Virus record (IMG/VR): IMGVR_UViG_649989947_000021
Strand: one strand, 5' to 3'
Length of the DNA: 37,504 nucleotides
Source of the DNA: a virus
Lineage: Duplodnaviria; Heunggongvirae; Uroviricota; Caudoviricetes
Both the position numbers and the translations under genes were made by a program. Under the pieces are notes generated by a model. That model worked only from the letters and a program-made list of their open reading frames with translations. It was not told the origin of the DNA and did no database searches. Positions within the stretch are counted from its first letter, which is position 1; the number at the start of each line of letters is the position of its first letter. Shown one piece after another: positions 20,416 to 25,260 of the stretch.

Positions 20416-20883
20416 CTACTTAATGCGCTGGGTGCGGATATATTCCTGCGCCCCTTCCAGTTGCTTCTGCATCGTCATCAACCGTTCTCTGAGGGTGAAA
20501 TAATCCCGTTCAGCGGTGTCTGCCAGTCGGGGGCTGGTTGCATTATCCATGCTGGTGGGTCCGGTGGCTTCACGCACGGCTGCGGAGCAACTGGCATTGA
20601 CCCGCAGGCGCTTACGACCAGCGGCAACATCAGCGCGCAGAGTTTCATTTTCAGTTTTCGCATCGGCTAACTCCTTCGTGTATTTTGCATCGATCGCAGC
20701 AACATCACGCTGACGCTGCTGCATGTCAGCGATGGTGGCGGTCGCCTGCTTCAGCTCACTGACTTTTTTATCACGCTGTTCTTTGTAGGCGATGGCGTTA
20801 TCACGGTAATGATTAACAGCCCATGACAGGCAGGCGATAATGCAGATAACCAGAGCGGAGATAATAACGGTTACCCTGCTCAT
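20416..20883 (-). CDS. Rz: i-spanin Rz
   Basis: [39 protein letters not shown]..., lambda Rz-like; ATGA overlap with the R stop. Confidence 0.9.
20478..20663 (-). CDS. Rz1: o-spanin Rz1 (lipoprotein) embedded in Rz in another frame
   Basis: [22 protein letters not shown]...[29 protein letters not shown] with lipobox and proline-rich region. Confidence 0.8.
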
Positions 20884-21377
20884 TGTTGCCCCCACAAACA
20901 GACTTCACGCTCAATCTCGCGGCGAGTCATCAGCCCTTTCCATTGCTTACCGCCAGCGTATGTCCAGCGCCGTAGCTGATCACATGCGCCTTTGATATCG
21001 CCCTGGTTTATTTTGCGAAGAAGCGTCGATGTTCTGAAATTGCCAGCGCCCACGTTGTAAACGAACGAGTAAAGAGCGCCGCGCGTTGTTTCCGGTATAT
21101 CGACGTTGATGTACGGGTTAATTTGTCTGGCGACCGTGGCAAGGTCTTTATTCAGGAGGGCTTTGCATTCTGCTTCGGTATACGTTTTACCGAGCATAAT
21201 GTCTTTTCCGGTGTGCCCGTAACATACAGTCCATACACCAACGATATCTTTATATGGTATGTAGCTGACGCCTTCCAGACCATCGTTACCACTTGGGCCA
21301 GTGATTAACACAGATGCTATAGCAATAGCCCCGCCACCAATAGCCGCAGCAACGGCTTTTCGTAATGATGGAGGCAT
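20880..21377 (-). CDS. R: SAR endolysin R (phage lysozyme with signal-anchor-release N-terminus)
   Basis: [44 protein letters not shown]..., phage-21 R-type by recall. Confidence 0.9.
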
Positions 21378-21592
21378 TATTCACCTCTCGCAGCCTTACG
21401 CTTGTCTTCTCTGATTTTGAAGTACAGATTTGTCAGGTAAGTCAGAAAGCCCAGAACCAGACTTCCCAGCACACCAATCGCAGCCCACTGTGACGGACTG
21501 ACCTGATCAAGCCACTGTAAAAACCAGTAGCCAGCACTACCAGCGGATGTTCCGTAGGCAATGCCAGTAGAGATTTTGTCCATTGATTTCAT
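21377..21592 (-). CDS. S: pinholin S (phage-21 type) with dual-start motif
   Basis: 71-aa [74 protein letters not shown]; Met1-Lys-Ser-Met4 dual start; GGAGG ribosome-binding site. Confidence 0.9.
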
Positions 21593-21710
21593 AGCAACGC
21601 CTCCGCCAGTAACGGATTGCGTAGTTCTTATATTGGGAAGGGGAAAAAAGAAGGCCGCAGCGTAACTATCACTAATAAATTCAGGACAGCCAGTGGCTAC
21701 GGCTCAGTTT

Positions 21711-21840
21711 GGGTTGTGGCGGCCGGAATCGAACCGGCTTCCATCGGTGCGCTGCCGATTGCAGTACGCGCGGCGGTCAGCTATATGACTAGTATTTTCA
21801 CTATCGCCTATCTGCTAGCTCGCCATTGAGCTTCACCACA
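21711..21840 (-). other. tRNA-like element, probably a degenerate or interrupted tRNA (possible anticodon GCG)
   Basis: Minus strand: TGTGGTG (5' acceptor) AA GCTC-AATGGC-GAGC (D-arm-like), then about 55 nt, then ATCGG-CAGCGCA-CCGAT (5-bp stem, 7-nt loop), GGAA, GCCGG-TTCGATT-CCGGC (T-arm), CGCCACA (3' acceptor pairing with the 5' strand, one G-U), A, CCC; lacks U33 and has no encoded CCA. Confidence 0.3.
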
Positions 21841-22056
21841 ACGATAAGAGCACTGCGCGGCACCTTTCACCAATTCCGCGAGGTCTGCGGGTTCAATGCT
21901 CTTACCTGTTGTGCAGAAAAAAAACCACACGGCAGCGAGTTTAAGCTGTGTGGCGAAGTTACCTCTCTTCACCAAGTATTCGGTAATAAAATAACTTGTG
22001 GTGTTCTCGTTTTTATGCCGATAAAATAAACGGTCCACTTTCAAATGGAGCGATTC

Positions 22057-22560
22057 ATGATTTTTCTCAGAACTGAAAACGGCATCGAGAAACTTGAAAA
22101 CTGGGAGGAAATTATATCCAGACCAAACTTTGTCACCACTATAGACAAAGGAGTTCAACAACTTGAGGAGATAATTGGTTACTACAAATTTAAAGAAGAA
22201 ATCCACTGTGGTCTAACTGGTTGCAACCAACCACATCAAATGGGTTATATTGTAAAAACATCTAGTGGCATTGAAACCAACATCGGAAATAAATGTGGTA
22301 AAAACGAATTTGGTGTGGAATTTGGTGAAAACGTTCTTAGTTTCAATAAATTTATGCAACTCGAAACCAATCGGGAAATTATTAGCACCGCAAAAAGTAA
22401 ATGTGAAGCGTGGCAAAAAAATATTGAAACGATACGAAATATCAAACCCACAATAGATTATCTATCTTCTACCATCGAAAATAGTAAAAATTCCAATTAC
22501 TCCGGAAGACTTGGTGCTACAGAAATTCGTTTTTTGACCAAGAACCAGACAGGCCTTGTA
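22057..22560 (+). pseudogene. AT-rich accessory gene of unknown function, 5' part (interrupted by IS10)
   Basis: Plus-strand ORF MIFLRTENGIEKLENWEEIISRPNFVTTIDKG... with GGAG upstream of ATG 22057; reading frame runs into the IS10 inside end at 22561. Confidence 0.7.
22552..22560. repeat. 9-bp target site duplication (GGCCTTGTA), left copy
   Basis: Identical to 23890..23898, directly flanking the IS10 ends. Confidence 0.85.
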
Positions 22561-23889
22561 CTGAGAGATCCCCTCATAATTTCCCCAAAGCGTAACCATG
22601 TGTGAATAAATTTTGAGCTAGTAGGGTTGCAGCCACGAGTAAGTCTTCCCTTGTTATTGTGTAGCCAGAATGCCGCAAAACTTCCATGCCTAAGCGAACT
22701 GTTGAGAGTACGTTTCGATTTCTGACTGTGTTAGCCTGGAAGTGCTTGTCCCAACCTTGTTTCTGAGCATGAACGCCCGCAAGCCAACATGTTAGTTGAA
22801 GCATCAGGGCGATTAGCAGCATGATATCAAAACGCTCTGAGCTGCTCGTTCGGCTATGGCGTAGGCCTAGTCCGTAGGCAGGACTTTTCAAGTCTCGGAA
22901 GGTTTCTTCAATCTGCATTCGCTTCGAATAGATATTAACAAGTTGTTTGGGTGTTCGAATTTCAACAGGTAAGTTAGTTGCTAGAACCCATGGCTCCTTT
23001 GCCGACGCTGAGTAGATTTTAGGTGACGGGTGGTGACAATGAGTCCGTGTCGAGCGCTGATTTTTTCGGCCTTTAGAGCGAGATTTATACAATAGAATTT
23101 GGCATGAGATTGGATTGCTTTTAGTCAGCCTCTTATAGCCTAAAGTCTTTGAGTGACTAGATGACATATCATGTAAGTTGCTGATAGGTTTCCAGTTTTC
23201 CGCTCCTAGGTCTGCATATTGTACTTTTCCTCTTACTCGACTTAACCAGTACCAACCCAGCTTCTCAACGGATTTATACCATGGCACTTTAAAGCCAGCA
23301 TCACTGACAATGAGCGGTGTGGTGTTACTCGGTAGAATGCTCGCAAGGTCGGCTAGAAATTGGTCATGAGCTTTCTTTGAACATTGCTCTGAAAGCGGGA
23401 ACGCTTTCTCATAAAGAGTAACAGAACGACCGTGTAGTGCGACTGAAGCTCGCAATACCATAAGTCGTTTTTGCTCACGAATATCAGACCAGTCAACAAG
23501 TACAATGGGCATCGTATTGCCCGAACAGATAAAGCTAGCATGCCAACGGTATACAGCGAGTCGCTCTTTGTGGAGGTGACGATTACCTAACAATCGGTCG
23601 ATTCGTTTGATGTTATGTTTTGTTCTCGCTTTGGTTGGCAGGTTACGGCCAAGTTCGGTAAGAGTGAGAGTTTTACAGTCAAGTAATGCGTGGCAAGCCA
23701 ACGTTAAGCTGTTGAGTCGTTTTAAGTGTAATTCGGGGCAGAATTGGTAAAGAGAGTCGTGTAAAATATCGAGTTCGCACATCTTGTTGTCTGATTATTG
23801 ATTTTTCGCGAAACCATTTGATCATATGACAAGATGTGTATCCACCTTAACTTAATGATTTTTACCAAAATCATTAGGGGATTCATCAG
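22561..23889 (-). mobile_element. IS10 insertion sequence (IS4 family), 1329 bp
   Basis: Inside end CTGAGAGATCCCCTCATAATTTCCCC at 22561 and outside end (reverse complement) CTGATGAATCCCCTAATGATTTTGGTAAAAATCATTAAG ending at 23889; full 402-aa transposase; 9-bp flanking direct repeats. Confidence 0.95.
22574..23782 (-). CDS. tnp: IS10 transposase
   Basis: 402-aa ORF MCELDILHDSLYQFCPELHLKRLNSLTLACHALLDCKTLTLTELGRNLPTKARTKHNIKRIDRLLGN..., IS10 transposase by recall. Confidence 0.95.
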   Translation of the reverse strand: MCELDILHDSLYQFCPELHLKRLNSLTLACHALLDCKTLTLTELGRNLPTKARTKHNIKRIDRLLGNRHLHKERLAVYRWHASFICSGNTMPIVLVDWSDIREQKRLMVLRASVALHGRSVTLYEKAFPLSEQCSKKAHDQFLADLASILPSNTTPLIVSDAGFKVPWYKSVEKLGWYWLSRVRGKVQYADLGAENWKPISNLHDMSSSHSKTLGYKRLTKSNPISCQILLYKSRSKGRKNQRSTRTHCHHPSPKIYSASAKEPWVLATNLPVEIRTPKQLVNIYSKRMQIEETFRDLKSPAYGLGLRHSRTSSSERFDIMLLIALMLQLTCWLAGVHAQKQGWDKHFQANTVRNRNVLSTVRLGMEVLRHSGYTITREDLLVAATLLAQNLFTHGYALGKL

Positions 23890-23898
23890 GGCCTTGTA
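23890..23898. repeat. 9-bp target site duplication (GGCCTTGTA), right copy
   Basis: Identical to 22552..22560. Confidence 0.85.
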
Positions 23899-24315
23899 AC
23901 CCTTTCTGAAGTGGAAACTGATAAGAATACCAAAACAATTCTGTTCGCAATGAATGAACACATGCGCGAGTCTGGAGAGGCAATAAGTGAATTCTACATA
24001 GGAAAAGTATCATTTAGTCATGTTCTTTTACCAGAAAACAATCTTCGTGATTTTTTTGTTGCGCTCAAAGAAGATCTAAAAAAAATTCAGTGTATTGATC
24101 TACAAACAGCCCCAAGCCCAGAAATTTCTAATGTTGCCAAAATTGCCAGTTCAATCGAAGAACGAATCAAGCGATTAAAAAAACTGAAACATGAAGCCAG
24201 TAAATTCCTAACTAAAAAAAATCTGCGTCCCATCGCAAACAAAATAAAATACTCATCGACAGCGGATGAACTTGAATTCCATAATTTCGAACGCTTTTTA
24301 AAAGGGCTGAAATGA
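23899..24315 (+). pseudogene. AT-rich accessory gene of unknown function, 3' part (downstream of IS10)
   Basis: In-frame continuation after the second duplication copy (TLSEVETDKNTKTILFAMNEHMRESGEAISEFYIGK...FLKGLK, stop 24313..24315); joined to 22057..22560 it gives about 306 aa. Confidence 0.7.
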
Positions 24316-24335
24316 TAAAAGCCCCGAAAGGGGCT
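24311..24335 (-). terminator. hairpin terminator; candidate tR'-like terminator for the late leader and also the stop signal for the plus-strand accessory gene
   Basis: AGCCCC-GAAA-GGGGCT hairpin; on the minus strand it is followed by TTTTATCATT; lies about 100 nt downstream of the Q-like stop and 5 nt after the accessory gene stop. Confidence 0.5.
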
Positions 24336-24429
24336 TCTATCAAAATCATTTACGCATTATTCCGCATGCTTAAAAGAATACATGACAGATTCGGACAAAA
24401 TCAAGTGCAATGTCGCAAAAACCCTAAGC

Positions 24430-25260
24430 TTAGTTCACATCATCACCAAAACTTGTCACATTCTGAAAAGCAATATCGGCCTTACGCTCTTCCTGGTGGC
24501 AAATGTCAACCAGAGAATCAAGAAACGGCTTCCAATTACGCGTCCATGTCCTGACATGTAGCTCGGGTATCCGCTTCAGTACAACTTTATATACTGTGGT
24601 AGACGGTACCGTGGAAAATCCATTTCCGCTGCAACGTTCGCAGATTTTAAACACTGGCACACCACGCTCGCTTGTGGCTTTGCGGTCCAGTACCTCTCCC
24701 TTTCCACCACAACGACACCTGGCACTTATCACTCCCTTCCCTTTACATACATCGCAAACGACTGGTACAACTTCCGTTACCTCTGTCCATTTCTCCCAGT
24801 CTGACGGTCGAACAGCACGGGAGCGACTGGCCCAATATGGTGCTTTACCCCATGGGTATGAAACCTTACGAATGACCTGCTTACGGGGTGTTAGTCCGGT
24901 ACCACTGCAACTATGGCATGTTACGCTGGTGTCCGCCGATCGGGAATACTCAGCAAAAGCAAACTGCGCCAGTACCAGCATACACCAGCCAAATTCACCA
25001 CCAGCTGCTTTACGCACATTCTTCGGTGCAATTTCCATCGCGTGACGCGCCAGCGCTTGGACTGCCATCTGCTCATCAGTCTTGCTGATACCGGCCTTCC
25101 CGAAGAAGGCCGCCAAGCCAAACCGTTCACGATTGCTGGTGGTACCAATAGCCGCCATAACATCGGTGCCTGTAAGACGTTCCGGAGAGGTTCCTTTCAC
25201 ATCGTCGCCGATATACATTCCCTGAGGACTGAAGTATTTTAGCGATGCCTCAAGCTTCAT
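24430..25260 (-). CDS. putative late antiterminator Q-like protein (zinc-binding Cys clusters)
   Basis: 276-aa ORF directly upstream of the lysis cassette in late orientation; Cys motifs CHSCSGTG, CDVCKGKG, CRCGGKG, CERCSGNG; assignment by position and Cys motifs, not verified. Confidence 0.5.
   Translation of the reverse strand: MKLEASLKYFSPQGMYIGDDVKGTSPERLTGTDVMAAIGTTSNRERFGLAAFFGKAGISKTDEQMAVQALARHAMEIAPKNVRKAAGGEFGWCMLVLAQFAFAEYSRSADTSVTCHSCSGTGLTPRKQVIRKVSYPWGKAPYWASRSRAVRPSDWEKWTEVTEVVPVVCDVCKGKGVISARCRCGGKGEVLDRKATSERGVPVFKICERCSGNGFSTVPSTTVYKVVLKRIPELHVRTWTRNWKPFLDSLVDICHQEERKADIAFQNVTSFGDDVN

Follow-up and report, generated by a model that had tools for sequence, protein, structure and literature searches.

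A prophage gene split by IS10 between Q and the lysis genes: a conserved family and a possible role in phage exclusion

The subject of this article is a gene that has been cut in two. It lies in a viral genome sequence of 37,504 nucleotides, IMG/VR record IMGVR_UViG_649989947_000021 (Caudoviricetes), the whole of which we call the window, and which is a P27/phi467-like lambdoid prophage without stx. Between the late antiterminator gene of this prophage, Q, and its lysis genes sits an AT-rich gene of 306 codons, and a copy of the insertion sequence IS10 has landed within it. The insertion itself is an ordinary, routine event; the value of the locus lies in the gene that it marks. The family to which this gene belongs is widespread, strongly constrained and borne by mobile elements; Pfam, NCBIfam and PADLOC do not annotate it, and it has no relative of solved structure. 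Its members have already been flagged in a published list of predictions, and as a kind of gene it is a familiar one, a prophage accessory gene and candidate defence gene. The window is a natural knockout for which public genomes hold the isogenic intact allele, making a direct comparison easy.

The insertion and the gene it splits

The two parts of the gene, and the element that separates them, are as follows.

22057..22560, plus strand: 5' part of the split gene, codons 1-168, with the N-terminal Cys/His domain complete and the long helix included
22552..22560, no strand: left target-site duplication, GGCCTTGTA, read directly
22561..23889, minus strand: IS10, 1329 bp, both ends read, 99.9% identical over 1318 nt to an annotated IS10 record
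22574..23782, minus strand: IS10 transposase, an uninterrupted open reading frame (ORF) of 402 aa in the ORF list
23775..23844, plus strand: RNA-OUT, the antisense regulator of IS10 made from pOUT (Rfam RF00240, full-length model, 98.8 bits against a gathering score of 41, E 1.3e-20)
23890..23898, no strand: right target-site duplication, GGCCTTGTA, read directly
23899..24318, plus strand: 3' part of the split gene, codons 169-306 and TGA, in which a 134-aa ORF from GTG 23911 is open

IS10 knocks out the 306-aa prophage gene. The initial annotation, made from the sequence by eye, had described an intact element with both of its ends and identical flanking repeats, and our direct reading of positions 21700-24700 agrees with it in every part: the 9-bp duplication of GGCCTTGTA is perfect, exactly 1329 bp lie between the two copies, and the transposase is intact. 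The left boundary, at 22561, is the inside end and opens with CTGAGAGATCCCCTCATAATTT; the right boundary, at 23889, is the outside end and closes with the reverse complement of CTGATGAATCCCCTAATGATTTT; near-perfect terminal inverted repeats are present (inside CTGAGAGATCCCC..., outside CTGATGAATCCCC...). With the ends placed in this way the transposase gene is co-oriented with late transcription of the phage. The probability of meeting identical 9-mers directly against both ends of the element by chance is about 4e-6, and the outside-end 23-mer, found once in the window and in 0 of 100 shuffles, is the window's sole match to an IS10 end sequence. The element shares its length of 1329 bp, both ends, the 402-aa transposase, RNA-OUT and the 9-bp duplication with IS10-Right of Tn10 (IS4 family), from which it differs in nothing notable. 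The preferred target hotspot of IS10 has the consensus NGCTNAGCN, and GGCCTTGTA fits only half of it.

Removal of the element and one repeat joins 22057-22560 to 23899-24318 in a frame of 306 codons and a TGA, with neither an internal stop nor a frameshift, much as the initial annotation had expected of an ORF of about 306 aa that resumes in frame after the second repeat. The point of insertion is codon 168. The protein encoded by the joined frame matches WP_000576789.1, from the IS-free allele of Escherichia coli N61, at 100% identity, with 2 synonymous nucleotide differences in the DNA, and E. coli F719 has an IS-free copy at 99.8%, in a prophage with an early region 99.9% identical to that of the window. 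Because the duplication is perfect and the joined protein is identical to an intact allele, the insertion is recent, as had been suggested; on the evidence of the sequence it is also the gene's sole lesion. The IS10-bearing allele is absent from the complete E. coli genomes in our collection. In IS-free relatives the site is occupied by one 306-aa gene rather than by two unrelated small ones: this is so in 10 of the 15 complete E. coli genomes that carry the gene, and the one-gene state holds also in Salmonella, Enterobacter and Citrobacter.

Translation starts at ATG 22057 rather than at ATG 22045: a GGAG lies 6 nt upstream of the former, and the homologues and the PHROG model all begin there, at MIFLRT. 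The gene is as rich in AT, and its product as rich in Lys, Glu and Asn, as had been noted, with a GC content of 35.3% against 50.5% for the window and residue shares of 11% E, 10% K, 10% I and 8% N. In its present state the window would yield at most a 182-aa N-terminal stub, made of 168 native residues and 14 encoded by IS10 and ending at 22605, together with the orphan 134-aa C-terminal ORF from GTG 23911, downstream of the IS10 outward promoter; the gene is dead here. That promoter and RNA-OUT (23775-23898) point into the orphan 3' fragment and onward antisense to Q, and the insertion may in this way create new transcription over the Q-proximal region.

The protein and its family

The protein belongs from end to end to PHROG 7003, a family annotated as of unknown function (E 1.7e-110, profile positions 1-309 of 309); the query was the 310-aa version that starts at ATG 22045, of which residues 5-310 were matched. 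Pfam and NCBIfam gave nothing significant for the joined protein and no defence family in PADLOC-DB v2.0.0 matches it, so that the initial view of a protein with no recognisable domain stands, and no known family of trivial function has come to light. Fifty diverse relatives all match PHROG 7003 and none matches a Pfam or PADLOC family; the PADLOC search of these 50 returned six scattered marginal matches (E 0.0015-0.008), each in one relative. A profile search of 1.84 billion representative proteins returned 1006 clusters at E <=1e-3 and 173 at E <=1e-30, which puts the size of the family at no fewer than 1000 clusters at 50% identity. Members of the best 150 clusters are mostly about 300 aa long and align across most of their length. 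A second, word-indexed protein search with a broad profile found no further E. coli relatives.

The ratio of nonsynonymous to synonymous change (dN/dS) is 0.10 in comparisons with the alleles of Salmonella and of E. coli 90-3040, and a ratio of about 0.1 against divergent alleles tells us that the gene is real and constrained. The N-domain, at 0.05-0.07, is under stronger constraint than the C-domain, at 0.11-0.13. Across the family, from about 20 to 100% identity, the only invariant residues are Y43, C51, C56, H60, G63, G77, C80 and G81; none of the four potential ligands among them, C51, C56, H60 and C80, varies in a set of 50 sequences that reaches down to about 20% identity, and the motif that these four form, C-x4-C-x3-H-x19-C, is probably a zinc site.

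An AlphaFold2 model of a 98%-identical IS-free allele is confident, with a predicted local distance difference test score (pLDDT) of 92.3 and a predicted template-modelling score (pTM) of 0.76. In it residues 1-85 make up a beta-rich N-domain; a helix of 42 residues follows, and the C-terminal region is helical but for two short hairpin strands. The joined protein is predicted to be soluble and cytoplasmic, with a pI of 8.4 and no signal peptide or membrane segment. Two structure searches found no solved structural relative of the model, and a sequence search of the Protein Data Bank (PDB) with a close-family profile gave no matches. Chromo, chromoshadow and Tudor-like domains, all small beta-barrels, resemble the N-domain very weakly, at sequence identities of 4-17%; unlike the family's N-domain they have no Cys/His site, and shared topology is enough to give small barrels a match score of this order. 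The product of the intact gene is a soluble protein with a Cys/His motif.

The slot after Q and its regulatory anatomy

The surroundings of the gene are set by the following features.

20880..21377, minus strand: SAR-type (signal-arrest-release) endolysin, bounding the slot on the lysis side
21377..21592, minus strand: class II holin, bounding the slot on the lysis side
21913..22056, plus strand: conserved upstream region of the cassette, with a ribosome-binding site, GGAG, at 22047-22050, 6 nt before the ATG
24315..24343, two-way: GC-rich hairpin overlapping the stop codon, with fold energies for both strands
24430..25260, minus strand: late antiterminator Q, 276 aa, PF03589 type (Pfam Antiterm found on the Salmonella orthologue)

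The split gene, on the plus strand between Q and the holin, is convergent with Q and opposite to late transcription, an orientation that had been read correctly at the outset (Q, holin and endolysin are all on the minus strand). Homology to IS-free relatives opens at 21913 in phi467, 21918 in F719 and 21832 in N61, about 140-225 bp upstream of the ATG, and continues through to Q. Since this homology is unbroken, the gene, its upstream region and the 3' hairpin travel together with Q.

The slot itself has varied contents. In the Stx2f phage phi467 and in complete genomes of Stx2f Shiga-toxigenic E. coli (STEC) the gene is placed between Q and stxA2f. In TUM1886 the slot, after the same Q module, holds a porin gene oriented against late transcription. 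Phage vB_EcoS-611R1 (locus L038, 3501-4445) and pNJS001-2 (L042, 5001-5945) have there a 314-aa family member only 25% identical to ours, beside a Q-primase-helicase module about 95% identical to that of the window, as though one allele had been exchanged whole for another at a fixed site. The gene iss is found nearby in relatives. The proposal that the slot between Q and the holin takes accessory cargo is supported, since what accompanies near-identical Q modules is in one case a porin gene, in others a family member at 25% identity, or the gene together with stx2f.

The initial annotation gave the gene a terminator hairpin of its own. The hairpin at 24315-24343 is real, with -18.8 kcal/mol (z -3.6) on the plus strand, yet the minus strand offers the more stable fold, at -22.3 kcal/mol (z -5.5), and the better U-tract. 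It would make the better intrinsic terminator there, and is a candidate both for tR' and for the end of the plus-strand gene. A weak promoter-like site on the minus strand, TTGATT-18-TATTCT (24404 to 24375), is a candidate PR', and promoter (24404-24375) and hairpin (24343-24315) together resemble the Q-PR'-tR' arrangement of lambda. If PR' does adjoin Q, late transcripts must cross the gene antisense on their way to the lysis genes, and those of Stx2f phages must cross it to reach the toxin genes. A late transcript from such a PR'-tR' (in Stx2f phages the stx2f transcript) would start with about 1 kb antisense to the gene, and in the window it would also cross IS10. At the other side of the gene, the minus strand has a stem, CCACAC...GUGUGG, followed by U8 (about 21918-21953), which looks like a late-strand terminator and has a z-score that is not significant.

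Distribution and genomic settings of the family

The gene is uncommon in its own species, being carried by 15 of 5426 complete E. coli genomes, and the Q-adjacent, convergent slot reaches well beyond it. At least eight enterobacterial genera share the arrangement: Escherichia, Salmonella (77% identity), Serratia (40%), and Phytobacter, Yersinia, Providencia, Morganella and Proteus (27-57%). The exact Salmonella protein is indexed in 870 blocks of a contig collection and listed on 756 contigs. Wherever a holin can be identified at the Enterobacterales loci it lies on the far side of the gene, and the adjacent Q comes from one of two unrelated families, PF03589 'Antiterm' or DUF1133/Phage_antitermQ. 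In a Klebsiella phage the family member sits beside cI/cro.

Other kinds of mobile element carry the family too. One member, 22% identical, rides as terminal cargo on an element of about 9 kb (Logan contig SRR18669188_62811; L009, 250-1853) that encodes an integrase, an archaeo-eukaryotic primase (AEP), a small terminase and a major capsid protein, and looks like a capsid-forming phage satellite; on this contig a 197-aa unknown gene precedes the family member on the same strand. Relatives occur on 24 plasmids, 8 of them conjugative; examples are Burkholderia plasmids (near traI), pQBR103 and a Vibrio plasmid. On the mobilisable Vibrio vulnificus plasmid pVv_GCU-01-3 (L040, 4000-10078) a 28%-identical homologue shares its block with genes for Hok/Gef, for antirestriction and for a zincin-like (ArdC-type) protein.

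We also looked at 15 distant chromosomal loci. Within about 4 kb of some of these lie an MmeI-type enzyme, a type I restriction R subunit, AbiJ, AbiEii, a PsyrT-like helicase and SoFic, with ParD, integrases and a DUF927 primase as other neighbours; the defence-gene neighbourhood is a matter of recurrence in some of the 15 loci, not of a formal enrichment statistic. All-against-all BLAST of the neighbours at 20 loci found no conserved partner gene, from which it follows that the gene works alone or with host factors. Very probably this is a horizontally shuffled accessory gene under purifying selection.

Recurrent null alleles

IS10 is not the only route by which this gene has been lost. Five mouse-associated E. 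coli genomes (for example IGC_RcoliRes_1.1; L004, 5202-6122) have a GAG-to-TAG nonsense mutation at codon 11 (E11*), a knockout that is independent of the one in the window; as a result RefSeq annotates a 245-aa remnant without three of the four Cys/His ligands. Frameshifts recur at two A8 runs, at about nucleotides 355-365 and 685-695 of the joined gene (about 22411-22421 and 24065-24075 in the window), giving forms (P0253, P0254 and P0259) of 132 aa on 11 contigs and 260 aa on 8 contigs. Phage phi467 (L001, 5001-5921) has two mutually offsetting frameshifts, and it is these A8 frameshifts, absent from the complete Stx2f genomes, that account for its annotation as two coding sequences. The A8 frameshifts may reflect on/off switching through strand slippage, or errors in the sequencing of homopolymers.

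A published prediction

No paper naming the gene was found in our literature search, by accession or otherwise, and a paper on the pR' regions of Stx phages has nothing on it. The family has, in spite of this, a place in print. DefensePredictor, a protein-language-model classifier, was run on 3000 E. coli and Shigella genomes (DeWeirdt, Mahoney and Laub, Science 2026; PMC13092281), and Table S10 of that paper sets out 1041 uncharacterised predicted defence clusters. Among them is WP_032207072.1, with a mean log-odds of 7.87 (6.88-8.36), the label 'Predicted novel defense gene' and no HHblits match (PMC13092281). This is the allele annotated in E. coli 90-3040, with 85% DNA identity to our joined gene. 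A cluster named for the 314-aa WP_000576620.1 is listed too, with a member, WP_096111884.1, at about 4.67 (PMC13092281). The strict cut-off of that study was a log-odds of 4 and its overall experimental validation was 45% (PMC13092281); by our own count from its Table S6, protection against phage was seen for 20 of the 38 units tested at scores within 2 log-odds of 7.87. Alleles of the family are predicted only, and are not among the 42 validated DS systems (PMC13092281). 'VAME' (WP_087897390.1, 307 aa), a possible distant relative although it belongs to another cluster at 30% identity, was tested against 24 phages and did not protect (PMC13092281).

A possible role in phage exclusion

What might such a gene be for? 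We lean, tentatively and somewhat short of an even bet, towards an intact gene that is a lysogen-expressed single-protein factor of phage exclusion or abortive infection (Abi). We are led there by the mobile-element habit of the family, the extreme allelic divergence at a fixed site, the conserved N-module joined to a faster remainder, the patchiness and the machine-learning call. We offer defence as a hypothesis, and it draws independent support from the context of mobile elements and defence islands and from the published prediction.

In outline, the gene would be a prophage 'moron' expressed in the lysogen, with a product that would act alone against other phages or mobile elements. The invariant beta-domain at the N terminus, with C51, C56, H60 and C80 (probably binding zinc), would serve as a constant working or docking module, and the faster-evolving helical C-terminal two-thirds would set specificity. 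When the prophage itself enters lytic growth, Q-modified polymerase from PR' might read antisense through the gene and silence it, giving self-immunity. The fixed place after Q, antisense to late transcription, in many genera and beside two Q families suggests a way to arm the host without harming the phage's own lytic cycle. We think this antisense self-immunity through the prophage's own late transcription unlikely all the same, and we are equally doubtful about the proposal at its fullest, in which PHROG 7003 would be a new single-protein family of anti-phage immunity with a fold not seen before (a chromo-like N-domain bearing a zinc knuckle, and a variable helical sensor) and antisense-wired self-immunity in lambdoid prophages. 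Were it true, an antisense gene between Q and the toxin genes of Stx2f phages could also modulate toxin expression.

The closest analogy that we can offer is BstA of the Salmonella prophage BTP1. Like our gene, BstA is a single prophage-borne protein (about 307 aa) encoded against the grain of the neighbouring operons, with a small N-terminal domain, a helical remainder without an enzymatic motif and a patchy presence in Enterobacterales prophages. It lies beside cI, whereas the split gene follows Q. Owen and colleagues (2021) reportedly traced BstA self-immunity to a DNA element inside the gene. We treat the likeness as a working analogy only: homology to BstA was rejected, hhalign of the family profile against BTP1 BstA giving a probability of 0.3% and Pfam no KilA-N match. 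The other comparison is with the morons of the lambdoid slot (stx and the nmpC porin, with bor/iss nearby). These share with the split gene their position, their build as putatively autonomous one-gene cassettes, a deviant base composition, the anti-late orientation (as in the porin of TUM1886) and their presence or absence among otherwise near-identical phages. They are, however, exported or membrane proteins aimed at the host environment, whereas the PHROG 7003 protein is cytoplasmic with a Cys/His motif, and unlike them the PHROG 7003 family recurs in the slot down to 25% identity.

Several points weigh against a role in exclusion, and we set them out together. The protein has no recognisable effector domain, whether nuclease, nucleoside triphosphatase (NTPase), TIR or pore-forming segment. 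No plus-strand sigma-70-like promoter scoring >=8/12 was found upstream of the gene, which leaves the picture of a gene equipped with a promoter and a terminator of its own no more than half borne out, and because of this its expression in the lysogen is an assumption. The recurrent null alleles (IS10, E11* and the A8 frameshifts) fit a costly defence gene and a dispensable gene equally. The family is absent from the 94 tested units of the DefensePredictor study (PMC13092281), by searches with accessions and with the motif CNQPH. The block on pVv_GCU-01-3 resembles plasmid leading regions, a hint that some members may act in establishment or anti-defence. Strict adjacency to Q, finally, could reflect a role in late transcription instead of defence.

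This last thought leads to the first alternative, that the gene regulates late transcription in its own prophage or the stability of lysogeny. Under it the protein or the convergent transcript would damp Q/PR'. It could do so by binding polymerase through its Tudor/chromo-like N-domain, or by antisense read-through into Q in the manner of lambda's paQ. We judge it improbable. Distant members live where there is no Q, in the satellite-like element, on plasmids, in islands of restriction-modification (RM) and Abi genes and beside cI/cro in the Klebsiella phage; close relatives with the same Q carry a porin and not the gene; prophages retain null alleles; and the likeness in structure that is invoked is very weak.

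Similarly improbable, to our minds, is an anti-defence or establishment factor that would help a mobile element past host immunity, for instance by inhibiting restriction or another defence. A small non-enzymatic binder has the architecture typical of anti-defence proteins, the family travels on plasmids (a third of them conjugative), and the Vibrio vulnificus homologue keeps the company of Hok/Gef, antirestriction and ArdC-type genes. Yet the phage gene runs antisense to the late operon, outside the early region where anti-defence genes normally sit, several distant loci are inside RM/Abi islands, and the score that DefensePredictor returned is one for defence (PMC13092281).

We would likewise place at a low probability a lysogenic-conversion factor that serves the host's ecology (stress, colonisation or virulence) and has no part in conflict between phages. 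The slot is the classic site for stx, the porin NmpC and cargo of the Bor/Iss type, and relatives carry stx2f, a porin or iss nearby, the gene adjoining stx2f in Stx2f phages. Against this, the protein is predicted to be cytoplasmic, with neither signal peptide nor membrane segment, and the spread of the family across environmental Proteobacteria, plasmids and a satellite-like element argues against a factor specific to one host niche. A very remote alternative, that the C-terminal part is a degenerate RelA/SpoT-like domain (a small alarmone synthetase or toxic small alarmone synthetase, toxSAS) acting as a CapRel-like nucleotide-pyrophosphokinase toxin, grew from weak matches of the broad profile to PDB entries 2be3 and 3l9d in the EIQIRT region (E 0.011-0.015 for the whole sequence, 0.27 for the best stretch), which we rejected as chance because Pfam and both structure searches contradict them and the fold and motifs of RelA_SpoT are not found.

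The interval between the holin and the cassette

Upstream of the conserved cassette the window departs from its relatives. A stretch at 21711-21769 on the minus strand was considered as a tRNA and rejected, its one match being to the transfer-messenger RNA (tmRNA) clan of Rfam at a sub-threshold 20 bits and ARAGORN calling no tRNA in the window. The interval 21640-21912, from the holin to the cassette, is unique to the window and has neither a tRNA array nor stx2f; the corresponding region of F719 is a tRNA array (Gly, Thr, Lys, Ile), and that of phi467 and the Stx2f STEC genomes is stx2f with tRNA-Gly/Thr.

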